64,000 bases of DNA from Escherichia phage EC148, in the sequence record NC_106721.1; one strand, 5' to 3'. This document shows positions 843 to 37,061 of this stretch, piece by piece. Every line of letters begins with the position of its first letter. Positions within the stretch are counted from its first letter, which is position 1. The notes beneath the pieces were generated by a model that was given only the letters and a program-made list of their open reading frames with translations, did not search any database and was not told the origin of the DNA. A program made the position numbers and the translations under genes.

Positions 843-1058
843 TCACTTGCCCAGCAGTTTAAGGATATTTTCCATAATAGTTTGGGCAGATTTTTCACTC
901 TTGTTGGTTTCAGCCAACTTTAAAGCGAGTTCTTCCTGCTGTTTCTGAATATCAGCTGCGATTTTTTGATCAGCCTCAATACGAGCTTGAAGCTCATCAG
1001 TGATAGTGGTAAAGGAAGCAACGATTTCAGTAACAGAACGTGGTTTCTTAGAGAACAT
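843..1058 (-). CDS. hypothetical coiled-coil protein (71 aa)
   Basis: ORF track; followed on the minus strand by a GAAA-tetraloop hairpin. Confidence 0.45.
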   Translation of the reverse strand: MFSKKPRSVTEIVASFTTITDELQARIEADQKIAADIQKQQEELALKLAETNKSEKSAQTIMENILKLLGK

Positions 1059-1676: not shown

Positions 1677-1705
1677 ATTATACGAGAATTTGAAGCGTTT
1701 AGCAA
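1677..1705 (-). promoter_or_regulatory. T5-type early promoter (TTGCTA-17-TATAAT)
   Basis: On the minus strand: -35 TTGCTA, 17-nt spacer, -10 TATAAT, then CATAAATTGATAA initial region. Confidence 0.65.
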
Positions 1706-2471: not shown

Positions 2472-2500
2472 ATTATACTAAATTATAGGGCTTTAAGCAA
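2472..2500 (-). promoter_or_regulatory. T5-type early promoter (TTGCTT-17-TATAAT)
   Basis: Minus strand; hexamers and spacing read directly. Confidence 0.6.
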
Positions 2501-2521
2501 GAGAATTTTTTAATTTATTTA

Positions 2522-2998
2522 TCACATCTCAGCCATTTCAGCTTCAGTAATAACTGTATTACATAAGGCGTCTACAGCCTCATTACCACTAATACCAGAA
2601 TGTCCTTTAACCTTAATAAAGGTAGGGTTAGTATTATGAAAGTTGATATACTGCTGTGTTAATTTAAATGCTTCCTGCCAAAGTTCTAGATTAAGAGGAA
2701 CTTCACCATCTGCTTTCTTCCAGCCTTTCCTTTGCCAAGAAAACATCCAACTTTCCATGCCATTTTTGCAATAAGCAGAGTCAGTATAGATAGCAATTGG
2801 TCTATTATCTTTTTTAACAGACCAACGTAGGGCTTCTACGATAGCTGTGAGTTCCATCTCATTATTTGTAGTTTTAGGATTATAACCAGATTTAGAACCT
2901 AAACGATCGTCGTTATCATCATAGACAATAAAACCCCAAGCACCTGGACCTGGATTAGACTTACAAGCACCATCTGTGTAAATGTGGAAAACCGACAT
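2522..2998 (-). CDS. rnhA: ribonuclease H (RNase HI type)
   Basis: Motifs TDGAC, ELTA, YTDS and VKGHSG...NEAVDALC. Start moved to the ATG at 2998..2996 (GGGAGG RBS, TAATG overlap with the upstream gene) instead of the TTG at 3010. Confidence 0.85.
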   Translation of the reverse strand: MSVFHIYTDGACKSNPGPGAWGFIVYDDNDDRLGSKSGYNPKTTNNEMELTAIVEALRWSVKKDNRPIAIYTDSAYCKNGMESWMFSWQRKGWKKADGEVPLNLELWQEAFKLTQQYINFHNTNPTFIKVKGHSGISGNEAVDALCNTVITEAEMAEM

Positions 2999-3279
2999 TA
3001 TACCTCCCAACTAATTTTAAGACCCATGTCTACAAAGGCGGCTTCTCGGTAGTATTGAGAGAGATGATACCCCTTATCCGATAAGGTTTTTAGTACCGAT
3101 TTAGCGGCTCCTGGCATTTCTCTAGGATTATATAGCCACCTAGCGTAAGGATTATCTCGAATAATTACTTCTGTATTTCCAGACTTAGCAGCTTCTACAA
3201 TCTTTTCTTCTATAAACTTTAGAAAAGCGGGTACTTCTGTTAATCCTGCAAGTTCTTGGGCTTCTTTGGCTGAAATCAT
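2998..3279 (-). CDS. hypothetical protein (93 aa)
   Basis: ORF track; translationally coupled to neighbours. Confidence 0.5.
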   Translation of the reverse strand: MISAKEAQELAGLTEVPAFLKFIEEKIVEAAKSGNTEVIIRDNPYARWLYNPREMPGAAKSVLKTLSDKGYHLSQYYREAAFVDMGLKISWEV

Positions 3280-3479
3280 GGCTTTTCACCTTCTGCTACA
3301 CTTCTGGTTTTTGGTGGGATGGGAGGGTTAGGTTTTATAGCCGCTAATTCCCTATCTAAGAATTCCTCTATTGCTCTATCTACAAAGTAGTCATAGGGTA
3401 AATGATAATGTTCTGATAGAGTAAGAAGTTTGTGCTCTTGGCTTTCTGTTAAATAAACTTTCTTTCTAAAGAGTCCCAT
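3276..3479 (-). CDS. hypothetical protein (67 aa)
   Basis: ORF track; a 34-bp perfect palindrome lies immediately upstream. Confidence 0.45.
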   Translation of the reverse strand: MGLFRKKVYLTESQEHKLLTLSEHYHLPYDYFVDRAIEEFLDRELAAIKPNPPIPPKTRSVAEGEKP

Positions 3480-3504
3480 ATGTGTATCTCCAATCTATAA
3501 AATA

Positions 3505-3538
3505 TATTATATTTAAATTTCGAAATTTAAATATAATA
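3505..3538. repeat. 34-bp perfect palindrome
   Basis: TATTATATTTAAATTTCGAAATTTAAATATAATA equals its own reverse complement; centre between 3521 and 3522. Confidence 0.9.
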
Positions 3539-3552
3539 GCCCCGAAGGGCTA
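3525..3552 (-). terminator. intrinsic terminator after thyA
   Basis: Minus-strand hairpin UAGCCC-UUCG-GGGCUA followed by an A/U-rich run. Confidence 0.5.
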
Positions 3553-3558
3553 TTTAAA

Positions 3559-4413
3559 TTACACAGTGAATGGATATGCAATAGCAGGATGGTGTTCGTA
3601 ACCACGAACAGTAAAATCATCCTTATTTACCCAGGTCAATACATCCTCCAGAGTTCGGATATTTGGATTGATTTCTAGAGTAGGAGGTGCAAAGGGTTCA
3701 CGATCAAATTGCTTATGCTCCATCAAAACATTATACTGATCCTCATAGATATGAAGATTGATAATCTTCTGGCGTGCAATCCCTGGTTTAAGGCCTGTAA
3801 TCTGTGCCATTAATGCTAGAAGCGTATAGCACTGAACCATGTTAAATACTTGGCCTAACAGGAAGTCATTAGATCTCTGGAAAGAGTTCAGATATAATGT
3901 ATCTCCCAAAATAGAGAACTGATGAGTATGCATACATGGACGTAAGCAACCCTTTGAGAACTCCCCCGGATTCCAGAAGGTTAGAATTTCCCCACGATCA
4001 TCAATGCCCTTTTTCAGATTATGATAAATCTTGGCTAGTTGGTCAAACATAAGACCATCGGAATTAGTCCACTGACGTCCTTGAACACCATAGACTCGTC
4101 CCATATCATCCTCACCTTTACGGTATGGATTGTCTAGCCAAGCTAAGTTTTCATTTGCATTAGCATTCCATGTGTTAACACCAATAGCGCGGAATTGTGC
4201 TGCTGAATCATACCCACGTAGATACCCAATCATTTCCATTATTGCTTGTTTTGCAAACGCCTTACGAGTAGTAATAAGTGGGAATTCACCTGCACCTACG
4301 TTAAAAGTAAAATCTGCATCAATAATGGTGAGGCAACGAACCCCTGTTCTGGGATTCGTTACCCACTGACCTTCTGATAGAATACGTTTTCCAACTTCTA
4401 TATACTGATCCAT
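3559..4413 (-). CDS. thyA: thymidylate synthase
   Basis: 284 aa; RPCMHTHQF active-site region and [13 protein letters not shown] motif match the ThyA family. Confidence 0.9.
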
Positions 4414-6119: not shown

Positions 6120-6148
6120 ATTATAGCAAATCTGGTAGCGATTAGCAA
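6120..6148 (-). promoter_or_regulatory. T5-type early promoter upstream of nrdB (TTGCTA-17-TATAAT)
   Basis: Minus strand; sits just after the nrdA terminator. Confidence 0.65.
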
Positions 6149-9995: not shown

Positions 9996-11870
9996 ATGAA
10001 TCGCAATGAAGAACTAAAGTATAAAGAAATGCAGGCGTTAATTAGAAACTGCAAAGAGATTATCGAAGGGTCAGCAGATGAAGAGCTGCTGTTTAATAAT
10101 GCCAATAAACCCTCAGAACGTTTCCCTACACAGAGGGATATGCTTGCAGGTGAATTGAGTAAGTATCTGATTCTAGAAGAAATGCCAATTCAGATTCGAA
10201 ATGCTCATATGATTGGGGATATTCATTTCCATGATGCTGATTATGCTGCATTAGGCATGACTAATTGTTGTCTGGTAGCTCTGGAAGATATGTTGAAGAA
10301 TGGTATGAAGGTTGGTAATGCTGAAATTAGCACTCCAAACTCTATCACTACTGCGGCAGCTATTACAGCTCAGATTATCACACAGGTTAGCTCCCATCAG
10401 TATGGTGGTACTTCCGTGGATCGCCTTGATGAAGTATTAGCTCCTTATGTTCGTAAATCCTATGACAAAAATCATGCGTTTGCAAAACGTTGGACTAAAG
10501 ATGAGGCCAAAGCATCAGTAATGGCTACGGAGATGACTGAAAAAGAAGTTTATGATGCCTGTCAGGGTCTAGAATATGAAATCAATACCATGTTCAACTC
10601 TAATGGTCAGAGTCCATTTATTACCTTTGGTTTTGGTCTAGGAACTTCTTGGGAAGCACGTCTAGTACAGAAAGCAATACTGAAAGTACGCATGGATGGC
10701 TTAGGTATCAATAAACGTACAGCTATCTTCCCGAAACTGGTATTTGTACTTCGTGATGGCGTTAACATGAAACCAGGAGATGTTAATTATGACATCAAGA
10801 AGTTAGCTATGAAATGTACTGCTGAACGTATGTATCCAGATTATATCAGCTATGATAAGGTTGTGGAAGTTACTGGTGACTATAAAGTTTCTATGGGCTG
10901 CCGTTCATTCCTAGCTGCTACAGAAGATGGTGAAACTGCCGGTCGTAATAACTTAGGTGTTGTTTCTGTAAACTTGCCTAGAATTGCTATCGAAGCTGAA
11001 GGAAATATTGATCTATTCTTTGATTTGCTTGAGCTACGTGTGGATACAGCATTAAAAGCGTTGGAGTGGAGAGTTGATCGCTTAAAATACATTCAAGCTA
11101 AAGCTGCACCCATCCTCTATATGTCAGGAGCCTTTGGACTGCGCTTGGAGCCTGATGAATACGTATTCGATCATTTCTATAACCGTGCTTCTGTATCTCT
11201 AGGATATATTGGTTGTCATGAAATGCTACAGTTCATGTTTGGCAAAGATGTAGACACAATGTCCGAGACCAGCATCAAGTTTGTTCAGCGTGTATTGCAG
11301 TACATGCGAGATAGAGTCGATCAGAAGAAGGAAGAAACTAAGTTAGGTTATAGCCTGTATGCTACACCGTCAGAGTCCCTGTGTGATAGGTTTTGCCGTT
11401 TAGATCGTGAATATTTCCCGGAGCATGAAGATATTCTGTCCAAAGGATACTACACTAACTCTCACCACCTTGATGTGGAACGTAAAGTTGCTCCCAATGT
11501 GAAATTTGATTATGAATCTAACTTTACTCCGATTGCTTCTGGTGGGTGTATTTCCTATGTAGAACTACCGGATATGAAACGATTCCCAGATGCACTAGAA
11601 TGGGTTATTAATTATGCTGCTAGTAAAGTTCATTACTTCGGTATTAATACTCCAGTGGATTCTTGTGGTAAATGTGGATTCTTAGGTGAAACAATAGCAT
11701 CCGAAGATGGATTTAAGTGCCCTATCTGTGGTAATCATGACCCCGAAACTCTTGAAGTAACTCGTCGAGTTTGTGGGTATCTTGGAAATCCAGGTGCTCG
11801 TCCATTTAACCCAGGCAAACAGCATGAGGTTATGGGCAGGGTGAAACATCAGGATATTCGAGCTAAGTAA
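9996..11870 (+). CDS. nrdD: anaerobic ribonucleoside-triphosphate reductase (class III)
   Basis: 624 aa; C-terminal glycyl-radical motif RVCGYLG and Zn ribbon CGKCGF...CPICG; consensus promoter and AAGGAG RBS upstream. Confidence 0.9.
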   Translation: MNRNEELKYKEMQALIRNCKEIIEGSADEELLFNNANKPSERFPTQRDMLAGELSKYLILEEMPIQIRNAHMIGDIHFHDADYAALGMTNCCLVALEDMLKNGMKVGNAEISTPNSITTAAAITAQIITQVSSHQYGGTSVDRLDEVLAPYVRKSYDKNHAFAKRWTKDEAKASVMATEMTEKEVYDACQGLEYEINTMFNSNGQSPFITFGFGLGTSWEARLVQKAILKVRMDGLGINKRTAIFPKLVFVLRDGVNMKPGDVNYDIKKLAMKCTAERMYPDYISYDKVVEVTGDYKVSMGCRSFLAATEDGETAGRNNLGVVSVNLPRIAIEAEGNIDLFFDLLELRVDTALKALEWRVDRLKYIQAKAAPILYMSGAFGLRLEPDEYVFDHFYNRASVSLGYIGCHEMLQFMFGKDVDTMSETSIKFVQRVLQYMRDRVDQKKEETKLGYSLYATPSESLCDRFCRLDREYFPEHEDILSKGYYTNSHHLDVERKVAPNVKFDYESNFTPIASGGCISYVELPDMKRFPDALEWVINYAASKVHYFGINTPVDSCGKCGFLGETIASEDGFKCPICGNHDPETLEVTRRVCGYLGNPGARPFNPGKQHEVMGRVKHQDIRAK

Positions 11871-11878
11871 GCTAATCA

Positions 11879-11910
11879 GCCGGGTTGCTAGTCGACCTGG
11901 CTTTTATTTT
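11879..11910 (+). terminator. intrinsic terminator after nrdD
   Basis: Stem GCCGGGU/ACCUGGC with 9-nt loop, then TTTTATTTT. Confidence 0.65.
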
Positions 11911-11912
11911 AT

Positions 11913-11941
11913 TTGCTTTCAGCCAAAAATTTATATATAAT
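11913..11941 (+). promoter_or_regulatory. T5-type early promoter (TTGCTT-17-TATAAT)
   Basis: Followed by AGATTTATAAATTTGAGAGGAG. Confidence 0.7.
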
Positions 11942-11969
11942 AGATTTATAAATTTGAGAGGAGAAAGAT

Positions 11970-12350
11970 ATGGAATTAAAGCCCTATATAGTTGAATCTA
12001 CATGTGGTAGTTTCCATCTGGGTGTAGATGATATTGCTGAGGCTGTCTTTGCTGCCACAGGTGATTACTCGCATATAGAGGGTGTTGGATACCCTACCAT
12101 TATTGGCGATTGGGTGGGAACAAATCTAGATGTATCGCCTTATAACCCATATTGCTTGTTTGATGAAGACAGAGATGAAGTAAAATGTAATCTTGAATTT
12201 GTGTATAATAGAGTGTTAAAAGTATACCAACGTAGCCCCAATGGGTACGAAGATATTACTTGGAGTATTAAACAGTATCTTAAAGATGTATACTCTAGTT
12301 TTTCTGACGAAGACCTAGAAACAGTTGCAGTGGAGTTTAATAATGACTAA
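11970..12350 (+). CDS. hypothetical acidic protein (126 aa)
   Basis: ORF track; T5-type promoter 11913-11941 and GAGGAG RBS. Confidence 0.5.
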   Translation: MELKPYIVESTCGSFHLGVDDIAEAVFAATGDYSHIEGVGYPTIIGDWVGTNLDVSPYNPYCLFDEDRDEVKCNLEFVYNRVLKVYQRSPNGYEDITWSIKQYLKDVYSSFSDEDLETVAVEFNND

Positions 12351-12549
12351 GAATGTGAAACACCTTAAATATCGCTTAATTTACAACGGACGTATGGAAA
12401 CAGAAGATCTGGCCCAATTAGCTATTAACTCTAATGAGGTTACAGTGCGTGCACTGGCAATTGAAAAGTTGCGTGCCTCTTATGAAAATCGTGTTATGGA
12501 ACTAGAGGAGAAACTTTATGGCATTCTCGAAGCCGATACTACCAGATAA
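12343..12549 (+). CDS. hypothetical protein (68 aa)
   Basis: ATG at 12343 overlaps the upstream stop (TAATG); the ORF-track start at 12325 is less likely. Confidence 0.4.
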   Translation: MTKNVKHLKYRLIYNGRMETEDLAQLAINSNEVTVRALAIEKLRASYENRVMELEEKLYGILEADTTR

Positions 12550-12739
12550 GGGTTTAAACTCCGCTTTGGAAAATGCATTAATGCAGCAGTGGGAAACTGG
12601 CTATAAGGATGGTGTTGAATCCTGCGCTACTATGCTAGAAGTTATTGCTAATACCTTAATGGAGAAAGGCAATAAAGAATTAGCTGAGCTATTAGACAGT
12701 ATTGGGCAAAACTTCAGAGAACAGGTGAAAAATGCGTAG
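12518..12739 (+). CDS. hypothetical protein (73 aa)
   Basis: ORF track; GGAGAAA RBS upstream. Confidence 0.45.
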   Translation: MAFSKPILPDKGLNSALENALMQQWETGYKDGVESCATMLEVIANTLMEKGNKELAELLDSIGQNFREQVKNA

Positions 12740-13568
12740 ATTAATTATTATTAGTGGTGCGGGTTTGAGTGTTGAAAGTGGTGTACGAGCCTTCCGTACT
12801 GATACTGCTAGTGGTAAAGCATTGTGGGATGACTATGATCTAGAAGAAGTATGTAATATTCATGCCTTTCGTGGTAATTTTTATCATAAAACCCATATGT
12901 TTTACAACAAGCGTCGTGAAGAGCTAAAAACTGTTGAACCCAATCTTGCGCATTTGCGTATTGGTGAATGGTATAAACAATATCCAGGTCAAGTAGTAAA
13001 CTTGACTACCAACGTTGATGACCTTATTGAGCGTGCTGGCGTTCCACATAGTGACATTCTGCATATTCACGGATATTTAAAAGAGGTTGTTGTAGCTGAT
13101 AGCTACAATAGTAGCAATAAACGGATTATTGATGTAGGATACAATTCTATTGATCCAGATGATTATAAATGGGTTAAACCTAATGTAATCTTCTTTGGAG
13201 AGCATGCTCCTGCATACGCAGAAATGTATAATGTTTTTGACGGTATTACCAGTCAAGATATGATCATTGTGGTTGGTTGCTCTAACCAAGTAATTAACTT
13301 CTACTGGGAATTATTTCCTGTTCTTAATAGGACTGCTGCGAAATTTATGGTAGTTAACTACTATGATAGTGCCCTCGCGGCGGAACCGGGCTATCAAGGT
13401 ATGACTCGTAGTGAGATGTACCAGCTGGAAGAACGTGGTGTCCCTTACTGGAGTAAAGGTGCGGTAGATGCTTTTAGTGATCCTGATTTTATTGCTCGTG
13501 TAGAAGCTCATTTAGAGGGTAGACCTTATGTGTCGAGAAGCAAGGGAAACAGATATGTCCATAGTTAA
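12732..13568 (+). CDS. Sir2-family protein (NAD+-dependent deacylase or NADase fold) without the zinc ribbon
   Basis: Motifs GAGLSVESGVRAFR, PNLAHLRI, TTNVDDL, HIHG, VIFFGE and IIVVGCS match sirtuin Rossmann-fold signatures; no 2xCxxC Zn module present. Confidence 0.75.
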   Translation: MRRLIIISGAGLSVESGVRAFRTDTASGKALWDDYDLEEVCNIHAFRGNFYHKTHMFYNKRREELKTVEPNLAHLRIGEWYKQYPGQVVNLTTNVDDLIERAGVPHSDILHIHGYLKEVVVADSYNSSNKRIIDVGYNSIDPDDYKWVKPNVIFFGEHAPAYAEMYNVFDGITSQDMIIVVGCSNQVINFYWELFPVLNRTAAKFMVVNYYDSALAAEPGYQGMTRSEMYQLEERGVPYWSKGAVDAFSDPDFIARVEAHLEGRPYVSRSKGNRYVHS

Positions 13569-13737
13569 ATCTGTGTATACACACCCCGATGATATATTTG
13601 TATGGGCGGATGGTAGTTGGTGCTATCGCTGTGAGCTGTGGGAGATGGACTATAAATCCGATGACTATGGTGTTATATATGTTGATACGGTTGAGTATGA
13701 TACGTTCTTAGAAAGGAACAAAAATGGAAATAAGTAA
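13555..13737 (+). CDS. hypothetical small protein (60 aa)
   Basis: ATG at 13555 (MSIVKSVY...); overlaps both neighbours; start uncertain. Confidence 0.35.
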   Translation: MSIVKSVYTHPDDIFVWADGSWCYRCELWEMDYKSDDYGVIYVDTVEYDTFLERNKNGNK

Positions 13738-14230
13738 TACTCCAATTATTTTTCTAGATATTGATGGGGTGCTCAATTCGAGCATCTCCCACCATCATGC
13801 ACCTGATGACGAAAAGATTTTCTTTGGAAGTGATTGGGTTTTCAAACCGCTTCTCAAGGCTTTTCAGGACTTTATTCGTCCTTCTCCGATAATGATTGTT
13901 GGAGTATCCTCATGGTTCTCTGTCAGGAATGAGATGGAGAACGTTCAGATTATGACCGGATTAGGTCTTATCGATCGTTTTCTTGGTACAACGGATTTTA
14001 CTGGGGGTGGATTATCTAGGGGTAATTCTGTTCTTCGCTTCGTTGAAAAGCATAAGCTCAAACATTGGTGTGTTCTGGATGACGCTGGTGCTATGATGTA
14101 CCAGTATCCAACGGTTATAGTCAACGGTAGAACTGGAATAAATCTTCAAGATTTAATGGCTGTTAGCTATATGCTAGAATTTAGTCCAGATCTTGAAATG
14201 TGTAAAGCCCTACAACAATTTAAGGTGTAA
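13724..14230 (+). CDS. HAD-superfamily phosphatase-like protein
   Basis: 168 aa; motif I FLDIDGVLN (DxDG), motif II VGVSSW, motif IV VLDDAG. Confidence 0.6.
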   Translation: MEISNTPIIFLDIDGVLNSSISHHHAPDDEKIFFGSDWVFKPLLKAFQDFIRPSPIMIVGVSSWFSVRNEMENVQIMTGLGLIDRFLGTTDFTGGGLSRGNSVLRFVEKHKLKHWCVLDDAGAMMYQYPTVIVNGRTGINLQDLMAVSYMLEFSPDLEMCKALQQFKV

Positions 14231-15154: not shown

Positions 15155-15183
15155 TTGCAGGATGCCCAAAATCTTGATATAAT
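15155..15183 (+). promoter_or_regulatory. T5-type early promoter (TTGCAG-17-TGaTATAAT) heading a ~500-nt untranslated region
   Basis: Extended -10 TG present; conserved ATTTATATTGAATTGAGAGAC downstream; no ORF for ~500 nt. Confidence 0.6.
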
Positions 15184-18697: not shown

Positions 18698-18726
18698 TTG
18701 CATAGTGCAAAAAATTTCTGTATAAT
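18698..18726 (+). promoter_or_regulatory. PN25-like early promoter (TTGCAT-17-TATAAT)
   Basis: The -10 and following 26 nt (TATAATAGATTCATAAATTTGAGAGAGGAGTT) match phage T5 promoter N25 as I remember it. Confidence 0.8.
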
Positions 18727-29538: not shown

Positions 29539-30887
29539 AGGTTGTTATATCTAATAAAGCCTATTTCAAGCCCGATGATGAACTTTGGGATTATTGTAGT
29601 AAGCAAACCACTTATCACATAGAGACAATGACTAGTAAATACCCTATTATGTATAAGAATAGTGGTGTTGTTGCTAAAGAGATTAAGTGGATTCCTATCA
29701 CGCGTCTGGATTTATTAGATGCTAAAGGAGTAAAATACGAATTAGTAGATAAACGTACATTAGCTCCGGTAGATATACCAAAACCTAAGTTCAAGCTGCG
29801 TGAAGAAGACCAGCTCCCAATATATGAAGAGTGCGATGATACCTGTATTATTAATGGTAAGCCTGGGTTTGGTAAAACTATCCTAGCCCTTGCACTTGCG
29901 TATAAATTTGGCCAGAAAACTTTGGTAATCTGTACGAATACATCCATTCGTGAAATGTGGGCAGCAGAAGTTCGTAAATGGTTTGGGTTTGAACCGGGCA
30001 TTATAGGTTCTGGGAAATACAATATTGATCCACCAATTGTAGTCAGTAATATTCAAACAGTGAATAAACATGCGAATAATCTTTCTAAAGTATTCGGTAC
30101 TGTTATAGTTGATGAAGTTCACCATTGTGTGGCTACAACTTTCACCAACTTCCTAGAAATATCATGTGCTCGCTATAAGATTGGACTATCTGGAACATTA
30201 AAACGGAAAGATGGTCTACAAGTTATGTTCAAAGATTTCTTTGGATATAAGATCTTTAGCCCACCGGTTAATAATACTGTTGCACCTACAATCCATAGGT
30301 ACTCCGTGCCTGTTGAGTTATCAGGAAACCAAAACGTACCATGGGCATTACGTGCTAATGATGTGTATAACCATCCTGAATATCGAGAGACTATTATAAA
30401 CTTAGCACACTTATACGTGAATATGGGGCATAAAGTACTCATTGTAAGTGACAGAACAGAGTTAATCCAAACAGTACTAGAAGCTCTCGCACAGCGTGGT
30501 GTTACAACATATGAAATTATAGGGGCAACCCACTTGGATGACCGATTAAAAATTCAGGAAAATATAGCAAAAGGTGGGCCTTGTGTACTTGCAGCAGCTC
30601 AAAGTATCTTCTCTGAAGGTATTTCCCTTAATGAGCTATCTTGTTTAATAATGGGGAGTCTCATTAATAATGAATCTCTCATTGAACAGCTTGCAGGACG
30701 TGTTCAACGTATTGTCGATGGTAAACTCGACCCTATTGTTGTAGATCTAATTATGAAAGGTGGCACTGGACTAAGACAGGCTTCTGGACGTATGGCAGTA
30801 TATCGTAACAACGGGTGGAAAACTATTACCATGACTCCTGAGAAAGCAGTTCAATTAGCTAAAATTGCATTTGGCAACAGCTCATAA
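29535..30887 (+). CDS. SF2 helicase (T5 D10-like)
   Basis: 450 aa; Walker A GKPGFGKT, Walker B VDEVHH. Confidence 0.75.
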   Translation: MKVVISNKAYFKPDDELWDYCSKQTTYHIETMTSKYPIMYKNSGVVAKEIKWIPITRLDLLDAKGVKYELVDKRTLAPVDIPKPKFKLREEDQLPIYEECDDTCIINGKPGFGKTILALALAYKFGQKTLVICTNTSIREMWAAEVRKWFGFEPGIIGSGKYNIDPPIVVSNIQTVNKHANNLSKVFGTVIVDEVHHCVATTFTNFLEISCARYKIGLSGTLKRKDGLQVMFKDFFGYKIFSPPVNNTVAPTIHRYSVPVELSGNQNVPWALRANDVYNHPEYRETIINLAHLYVNMGHKVLIVSDRTELIQTVLEALAQRGVTTYEIIGATHLDDRLKIQENIAKGGPCVLAAAQSIFSEGISLNELSCLIMGSLINNESLIEQLAGRVQRIVDGKLDPIVVDLIMKGGTGLRQASGRMAVYRNNGWKTITMTPEKAVQLAKIAFGNSS

Positions 30888-30899
30888 ATGATGTATAAT
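30871..30899 (+). promoter_or_regulatory. sigma70-like promoter (TTGGCA-17-TGTATAAT)
   Basis: Overlaps the D10-like stop; followed by ATATACATAAATTTGAGAGAG. Confidence 0.55.
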
Positions 30900-37024: not shown

Positions 37025-37061
37025 AAAAACCCCGGTGGATTTTGTCCACCGGGGTTTCTTT
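37025..37061. terminator. bidirectional intrinsic terminator between the convergent early and late operons
   Basis: AAAAA, 10-bp stem CCCCGGTGGA/TCCACCGGGG with 5-nt loop, then TTTCTTT. Confidence 0.8.

Follow-up and report, generated by a model that had tools for sequence, protein, structure and literature searches.

The DNA analysed here, which we call the window, is a stretch of 64,000 nucleotides from Escherichia phage EC148 (NC_106721.1), and our subject is a 34-bp palindrome within it, TATTATATTTAAATTTCGAAATTTAAATATAATA, at window 3505-3538, close behind the thymidylate synthase gene thyA. An earlier note on this DNA had picked out the site as an exact, AT-rich palindrome far longer than chance would allow, placed it between the thyA terminator hairpin and a gene for a 67-aa protein, and pointed to TATAAT-like hexamers on both of its strands. 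As possible functions, it had proposed an operator for a dimeric regulator, a bidirectional promoter, or a cruciform-forming recombination or nicking site. The description held in each of its parts, as set out below. With regard to function, we arrive at a different reading, to which we assign a probability of roughly 0.8: the palindrome is the remnant of a T5-type early promoter that has undergone a centre-symmetric 15-bp deletion.

The genes at the locus all lie on the minus strand. The features on which the argument draws, each an open reading frame (ORF) or a sequence element, are as follows:

3505..3538, no strand: the palindrome, formed by the two fused arms of an ancestral inverted repeat (exact palindrome; 15-bp gap against relatives)
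3505..3521, minus strand: promoter-proximal arm, in which the -10 hexamer TATAAT is kept at 3511..3506
3522..3538, minus strand: upstream arm, formerly the AT-rich -43/UP-like region of the promoter, which doubles as the U-rich tail of the thyA terminator
3535..3554, minus strand: thyA terminator hairpin, with its core GCCC-UUCG-GGGC at 3539-3550 (RNA fold; terminator annotation in phage EASG3)
3559-4413, minus strand: thyA (thymidylate synthase), an ORF annotated so in all relatives and the last gene of the nrdB-frd-thyA unit
3276..3479, minus strand: 67-aa ORF, the first gene downstream, with a Shine-Dalgarno GGAG at 3488-3491(-); PHROG 17630 (function unknown)
2998-3279, minus strand: 93-aa ORF, with start/stop overlap within the 67-aa/93-aa/RNase H unit
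2522-3010, minus strand: RNase H (Pfam RNase_H match, 2.9e-32)

The palindrome equals its own reverse complement over the full 34 bp and is bounded by a mismatch of 3504 A against 3539 G. It is flanked by the GC hairpin at 3539-3550, which reads GCCCCGAAGGGC, and by the 67-aa ORF at 3276-3479(-), and it carries outward-facing TATAAT hexamers at 3506-3511(-) and 3532-3537(+), the latter being the mirror image found on the plus strand of the upstream arm. In a scan of the whole window, the next-longest palindromes without a spacer measured 16, 14 and 14 bp, and when loops were allowed, the arms of every other perfect inverted repeat were 13 bp or shorter. By our own arithmetic, ~1e-5 palindromes of this kind are expected by chance per 64 kb (per-position match probability 0.26 at 39% GC), which rules out an effect of composition; even in 90% AT DNA, the chance would be ~1e-7 per site.

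A centre-symmetric deletion in a conserved element

We compared the locus with its relatives. The region has counterparts in hundreds of T5-like phages (Tequintavirus, Demerecviridae), and the closest record, Escherichia phage T5_ev212 (LR597659), aligns to window 1-24000 as one piece at 99.6% identity. At the place of the palindrome, ~400 related phages carry a 49-51-bp element composed of two inverted arms of 17-22 bp around a loop; the element was covered by 58 of 60 rows sampled evenly from the 421 phage records that matched a 181-bp blastn query. An identical 49-bp form is found in T5_ev212, SUT_E1520, AKFV33, BB1, phC11, SP15 and SpoonbillGilly, and the same form occupies the same place in 17 of the 47 sampled loci. 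On the plus strand, this form consists of TATTATATTTAAATTTCA-CTAAATAAGCAAA-TGAAATTTAAATATAATA and is bordered by the hairpin and the ribosome-binding site that also border the palindrome. On the gene (minus) strand, it reads as an upstream arm TATTATATTTAAATTTCA, a loop TTTGCTTATTTAG and a downstream arm TGAAATTTAAATATAATA.

Base-by-base comparison with T5_ev212 places a 15-bp gap at 3521/3522 of the window, where ACTAAATAAGCAAAT is missing, and the same 15-bp deletion is seen against SUT_E1520, AKFV33, BB1, phC11 and SP15. The missing bases comprise the 13-nt loop and the innermost A-T pair, and their loss fused two 17-bp arms into the spacer-free 34-bp palindrome, with the junction between 3521 and 3522 making its central TTCGAA. 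Read directly from the sequence, the deletion is blunt and centred exactly on the dyad, and its ends show neither microhomology nor a direct repeat with a 15-bp period. The deletion is also recent: over window 1-24000, the comparison with T5_ev212 yields 68 substitutions, one 1-bp indel and the one 15-bp deletion.

The differences from T5_ev212 elsewhere in these 24 kb are unevenly spread. Most of the substitutions (65/68) fall within ~11000-13999, which takes in the last part of the anaerobic ribonucleotide reductase gene and the small ORFs that come after it, and this patch at 11-13 kb looks like the product of recent recombination; just 3 are scattered across the remaining ~21 kb. The sole other indel is a 1-bp deletion at 1058, at the start-codon end of a 71-aa ORF (843-1058(-)).

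Judged from these alignments, the perfect palindrome is a rare mutant allele of a conserved element. The exact 34-mer was not found in IMG/VR, the metagenome collection or GTDB genomes. Among 50,697 phage records, full-length matches to window 3470-3575 all show the 15-bp gap except Salmonella phage oldekolle (MT074448; RefSeq copy NC_048865), which carries the identical 34-bp palindrome. A search for the palindrome in related phages, which the earlier note had suggested as a check, thus had a divided outcome: the perfect form is confined to the window and oldekolle, while the interrupted form is strongly conserved. The palindrome is no purpose-built operator or nicking site but a rare deletion allele of a conserved, promoter-bearing inverted repeat of 49-51 bp.

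The 67-aa gene is absent from oldekolle, whose thyA is of the other type. On both sides, the flanks of oldekolle are unlike those of the window and are the same as in several phages with the 49-bp form (loci L009, L010, L014-L016), whereas the flanks of the window are those of T5_ev212 and SUT_E1520. The segment common to the two palindrome-bearing phages is ~85 bp long at 94% identity. Because the flanks differ and the common segment is this short, recurrence is more parsimonious than transfer, and comparison of the two loci indicates that the 34-bp allele probably arose independently in each phage.

A hairpin or cruciform formed by the arms may have directed the deletion, either through excision of the loop or through strand switching; such processing would account for a deletion that is blunt, symmetric about the centre and seen twice. 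Simple slippage would not be expected to give blunt, exactly centred ends that lack microhomology, and these features favour processing guided by such a structure. We do not claim a template-switch mechanism, because it would require either a primer terminus without complementarity or a loop of zero nucleotides.

Promoter motifs before and after the deletion

The conserved element carries the motifs of a promoter. On the gene strand, the loop TTTGCTTATTTAG holds a -35 box, TTGCTT, and the downstream arm TGAAATTTAAATATAATA holds a -10 element, TATAATA, at a spacing of 17 bp; the arm runs on into TATTTTATA..TTGGAG, and the -10 element is followed by an ATATT discriminator. T5 early promoters follow the consensus TTGCTw-N17-18-TATAATA and are AT-rich in the -43 and +1 regions (PMC3326045), and the ATATT discriminator marks the early class of T5 promoters (PMC7472727). 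A 'promoter' is annotated at the element both in AKFV33 (TTGCTT N17-18 TATAATA; PMC3326045) and in T5 (AY543070, 46937-47011, between thy and rnh). The ancestral element fits every consensus block of the early sigma-70 promoters of T5 (P_N25/P_H207 class), with AAATTTCAT upstream, TTGCTT, 17 bp, TATAATA, ATATT and, downstream, ATAnATTGGAG. By these motifs, it is a T5-type early promoter placed directly after the thyA terminator hairpin. The pattern TTGCT-N17-19-TATAAT has 11 matches in the window against 0.42 expected, with 0 at the palindrome, and on alignment the 11 share their flanking blocks, upstream as well as downstream, with the ancestral element.

At the window site, the -35 hexamer TTGCTw is missing from both strands, whereas T5_ev212 and ~400 relatives have TTGCTT. 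The -10 element TATAATA is kept at 3505-3511(-), but the 17-18-bp spacing has no -35 box to count from. Also kept are the ribosome-binding site and the ATATT discriminator (3505..3501, minus strand), which directly follows the -10 TATAAT of the promoter-proximal arm and is itself followed by TTATAGATTGGAG, so that the site still bears the early-class mark. Compared with T5 early promoters, the window thus retains the -10, the discriminator and the downstream part, and has lost the -35 box and the spacing to the upstream AT-rich block. As far as its motifs tell, the site is a damaged derivative of the T5 early promoter family and not a working member of it. Transcription from the ancestral promoter is predicted to have started near 3499.

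To score these sites, a promoter weight matrix was derived from nine window promoters with 17-bp spacing. The T5_ev212 site scored +29.2 bits, the 13th best of ~128,000 positions, while the window site scored -25.5 bits on the minus strand (rank 341 of ~128,000, background) and -11.1 bits on the plus strand. At 16-18 bp upstream of either TATAAT there was no TTGnnn-like hexamer, and neither had a TG extension. On the minus strand, the matrix gave no T5-type promoter above 0 bits between 6148 and 2472, which leaves the following as the candidate source of transcripts:

6120-6148, minus strand: nearest remaining upstream T5-type promoter (matrix and pattern), presumed source of read-through

The 67-aa, 93-aa and RNase H genes are, by their overlapping start and stop codons, a unit once served by the lost promoter, and the missing motifs suggest that this internal promoter has probably ceased to work in EC148. 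RNA polymerase would no longer initiate efficiently at the palindrome. From the loss of the -35 box and the lack of a minus-strand promoter between 6148 and 2472, we infer that the 67-aa, 93-aa and rnh genes may be transcribed mainly by read-through of the thyA hairpin from 6120-6148. In the read-through RNA, the palindrome would fold as an A-U hairpin of 12-15 bp directly after the terminator hairpin, where little effect is expected.

The thyA hairpin adjoins the element in all relatives and is invariant among them. According to the RNA fold it can be extended to 8 bp, and it then shares the last 4 nt of the palindrome. Its tail, UAUUAUAUUUAAAUUU, is a poor U-tract, which fits leaky termination; the upstream arm, as RNA, supplies the U-rich terminator tail UAUUAUAUUUAAAUUUC. 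A generic scan for sigma-70 promoters and terminators called neither the thyA hairpin, whose T-tail is interrupted, nor the T5-type promoter, whose TTGCTT agrees with TTGACA at 3/6 positions. Beyond the GC hairpin, at 3551-3560, the arm motif recurs for a third time as TATTTAAATT, overlapping the thyA stop codon. Because this copy can pair with AATTTAAATA of the adjacent arm (15-nt arms, 80% complementary, 3528-3561), the terminator hairpin is in competition with the palindrome for bases that both can use.

Several other sites in the window came to light in the same searches. The promoter at 1677-1705(-), TTGCTAAACGCTTCAAATTCTCGTATAATATACTTCATAAATTGATAAACAAAAA, presumably matches the classical T5 promoter P_H207. 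Three plus-strand sites, at 15155-15183, 18698-18726 and 30871-30899, score 40-43 bits by the T5-promoter matrix while falling outside the strict TTGCT-N17-19-TATAAT pattern, and probably represent further early promoters. A 21-nt inverted repeat at 9735-9755/9785-9805, in the divergent intergenic region that separates phoH (-) from the anaerobic reductase gene (+), is 76% complementary and has a TTGCTT-like -35 box in each arm; it has the appearance of two divergent T5-type promoters in mirror image. Among the perfect inverted repeats of the window, the next in length after the palindrome is a GC-containing hairpin at 37027-37057, AAACCCCGGTGGA, with perfect 13-bp arms and a 5-nt loop, which is probably an intrinsic terminator.

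A covarying inverted repeat and the readings it allows

We gathered 20 distinct variants of the T5-like element from phage records, IMG/VR and metagenomes. They belong to three types:

Type A: 18-bp arms, e.g. T5_ev212
Type B: 20-22-bp arms, T5, DT57C, SSP1 and HMD-P3
Type C: 17-bp arms, one IMG/VR phage, behind a divergent thyA and hairpin

The outer 8 bp of the arms, which are the -10 element and its mirror image, are invariant in all variants. At the nine variable arm positions, complementarity is 9/9 within a type and 3-6/9 between the three types, and a paired 1-bp indel preserves the symmetry of the arms. Across the alignment, 97.2% of cells are paired and 5 pairs have changed on both sides, a result reached by 0/500 shuffles; in slid controls, 36-49% were paired. 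The count is conservative for the type C row, which MAFFT offset by one column, and covariation of this kind can be mimicked by sequence relatedness and template-switch homogenisation. Around the -35 boxes of the other 11 T5-type promoters of the window, only chance-level repeats were found, so that among the 12 T5-type promoters examined the ancestral element is the only one with its -35 in the loop of a covarying 17-22-bp repeat. The literature searched gave no description of a covarying repeat around this T5 early promoter. What maintains the repeat could be selection for a structure or a protein; alternatively, template switching from the constrained -10 arm could homogenise the arms with no selection at all.

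The alternative that survives best holds that the repeat works as a nucleic-acid structure, either an RNA hairpin in read-through transcripts directly behind the thyA terminator (a back-up terminator, an insulator or a processing site) or a cruciform that hides the -35 box in its loop and the -10 in its stem and so makes the promoter sensitive to supercoiling, with the 34-bp form as a tighter version; we consider this possible, though on balance doubtful. The covariation speaks for it, as do the exact mirroring of the fixed -10 arm by the upstream arm in all variants and the restriction of the repeat to one promoter out of 12. As RNA, the 49-mer folds at -16.4 kcal/mol and the tandem hairpins of T5 at -30.9, far better than shuffled sequences (z -7 to -8), and as DNA the folds reach -11.7 for the 49-mer and -8.6 for the 34-mer. 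All-A-U stems make poor terminators, however, and a search of Rfam at a permissive threshold matched no family to either the 49-bp or the 34-bp allele. T5 has a G.U intermediate on the sense strand, but when single mismatches are read as G.U, ~5 events fall on the sense (minus) strand and ~4 on the antisense (plus) strand, so that no RNA-strand signature emerges and the mismatches are compatible with an RNA-level and a DNA-level constraint alike. Perfect pairing does not seem strictly needed either, as ~40% of sampled genomes have 1-2 arm mismatches, single-arm mismatches being common in terminal lineages. Moreover, template switching can homogenise the arms without selection (PMC8794818; abstract of PMC8604942).

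A cruciform at a promoter has a precedent in the engineered, cruciform-regulated E. coli promoter of Horwitz and Loeb (1988), as cited in PMC6060812. The two are alike in that promoter elements sit within an AT-rich inverted repeat for which extrusion under negative supercoiling is conceivable; they are unlike in that the precedent is synthetic, whereas extrusion at the ancestral repeat is hypothetical. A bolder version of the structural reading, which we offer as speculation and think unlikely, is that the ancestral repeat is a selected hairpin or cruciform, with the -35 in the loop and the -10 in the stem, at this one promoter across Markadamsvirinae, acting as a promoter gated by supercoiling or replication or as a terminator-coupled insulator at the RNA level. 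The loop deletions in the window and oldekolle would then be in vivo footprints of a structure that had formed and been cut, and both phages would be natural promoter knock-outs.

Next, we considered whether the repeat or palindrome might be the operator of a dimeric regulator, for example of the 67-aa protein repressing its own promoter. The dyad symmetry is perfect and overlaps promoter elements, the repeat of the ancestor is centred on the -35 box, and the covariation of the arms means that symmetry is maintained. The repressor CopG occupies a dyad that spans the -35 box of its own promoter. For the 67-aa protein, Pfam gave no match and a PDB sequence search only a chance hit. Its AlphaFold model has an extended N-terminus or strand followed by two helices, and nearly all of its best Foldseek matches in the PDB are ribbon-helix-helix repressors or antitoxins (CopG/ORF56, AmrZ, Arc, NikR, ParD, VapB); as none of these matches is significant (all E >= 0.23), the model makes a ribbon-helix-helix fold possible at most. 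The locus would resemble those of the CopG/Arc repressors in having its symmetry centre at the -35 and a small ribbon-helix-helix-like protein as the product of the first gene of the operon.

The resemblance fails at the co-occurrence of gene and repeat. Homologues of the 67-aa protein, conserved only in the N-terminal ~45 residues, are present in 137 phage records against ~400 with the repeat. The gene is missing from T5, DT57C, BB1, SSP1 and oldekolle, all of which have the repeat; in smaug it is the repeat that is missing and the gene that is present. Among phages with an identical type-A repeat, some carry the gene and others do not. Across the 64 kb, the half-site turns up again only in one ordinary promoter -10 region, and the half-sites of operators are normally conserved in sequence instead of covarying. 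The operator that the earlier note had put first among its suggestions is therefore improbable.

We regard it as still less probable that the palindrome is a bidirectional promoter using both TATAAT hexamers, although these are exact and face outward on the two strands in very AT-rich surroundings. Neither strand offers a -35-like hexamer at 16-18 bp or a TG extension, and the matrix scores given above are those of background on both. A plus-strand transcript would have its start within the GC hairpin and would be antisense to thyA; the next gene on the plus strand is ~6 kb away. The idea of a promoter was right with regard to descent, but not with regard to two directions, as the only -35 box the element had is the one deleted.

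Some points weigh against reading the palindrome as a deleted and disabled promoter. One is that the 15-bp deletion might be a sequencing or library artefact at a hairpin, the phage itself having the 49-bp form: the site does form a stable hairpin, and the allele is known just from the window and the oldekolle assembly. We think this very unlikely. By our reasoning, the junction TTTCGAAA must be present in the reads for the assembly to contain it, polymerase jumping usually drops a whole hairpin and not the loop alone, and the k-mers usual in assembly exceed the 18 bp of the arms; in addition, the identical product appears in two independent genomes with differing flanks. Another is that a conversion tract of less than ~60 bp could have given both 34-bp alleles a common origin. 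Standard template-switch models, whether intra-strand or cross-fork, do not readily yield a product without a spacer. Finally, AT-rich upstream DNA with a perfect -10 can sometimes initiate without a -35, so that 'crippled' is a prediction, and the weight matrix rests on just nine sequences. With these points in mind, we hold that the palindrome very probably originated by deletion in a promoter, an approximate judgement, and place lower confidence in the predicted loss of promoter activity.

The third suggestion, a recombination or nicking site, to which we add a homing site (for example a T5 virion nick or a nuclease target), is the least probable of all. T5 nick sites are GC-containing motifs, to which the AT-only palindrome bears no likeness; at least four different genes stand downstream of the element in a mosaic hotspot, and the loop deletion implies that a structure was processed in vivo, but homologous recombination at a conserved terminator/promoter cassette explains the mosaicism equally well (PMC4122927) with no special nuclease, and we found no evidence that supports such a site. 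Nicks in the T5 family are made in one (minus) strand at few specific sites (PMC10644984).

Relation to known systems and meaning

The thyA-rnh interval (window 2500-4413) is a mosaic hotspot in T5-like phages in which the hairpin-plus-promoter cassette is near constant, as seen in the window and in loci L002, L003, L005, L018, L019, L021 and L035. The interval holds 0-3 small ORFs (67-aa, 93-aa, 117-aa membrane protein), thyA comes in two length types of 840 and 855 nt, and SelmaRatti has a homing endonuclease gene here. We infer from the mosaicism a possible role of the thyA cassette in recombination.

The arrangement recalls the PeSL cassettes known from T4-like phages, in which a terminator and an early promoter make up a small composite motif through which modules are shuffled (PMC4122927). 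In both, a compact terminator stem-loop is followed by an early promoter, and a conserved cassette is set amid variable genes, although in the window the promoter half is damaged. Downstream of the thyA cassette are at least four kinds of gene (67-aa, 93-aa, rnh, SSP1-type), and upstream at least three contexts, with two thyA types or an extra membrane-protein ORF. The differences from PeSL are the phage family and the sequence, the single locus without dispersed copies (the arm is not found elsewhere in the 64 kb), and the long repeat around the -35, which has not been described there; the other window promoters have different upstream hairpins.

The deletion can also be set beside quasipalindrome and template-switch mutagenesis (Ripley; Lovett; Monttinen and Loytynoja 2022; PMC8794818, PMC7202029), with which it shares the conversion of an imperfect repeat into a perfect one in a single step. 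The arms of the ancestral element likewise seem homogenised, with multi-base compensatory differences between lineages. Unlike the classical events, which replace mismatches or invert or extend a spacer, the event seen here removed a 13-nt spacer and one pair. By our reasoning, the four-point switch model does not predict a product with zero spacer and no microhomology unless priming occurs without homology. For a quasipalindrome, a blunt, symmetric loop deletion without microhomology, seen twice, is an unusual mutational signature.

In the perfect palindrome, a known element appears in a rare and new form. The palindrome is a deletion scar in a known promoter, and annotations should not list it as an operator or nick site of a new kind. 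A T5 early promoter that has been annotated since the genome record of 2005 sits within a long covarying inverted repeat, and the ancestral repeat offers a compact system in which selection, whether on a cruciform, an RNA hairpin or the binding of a protein, can be tested against template-switch homogenisation. If promoter activity has been lost as predicted, EC148 would be a natural example of a T5-like phage that stays viable after losing one of its internal early promoters, and the thyA terminator would have to be leaky enough to allow expression of RNase H and the two small genes.

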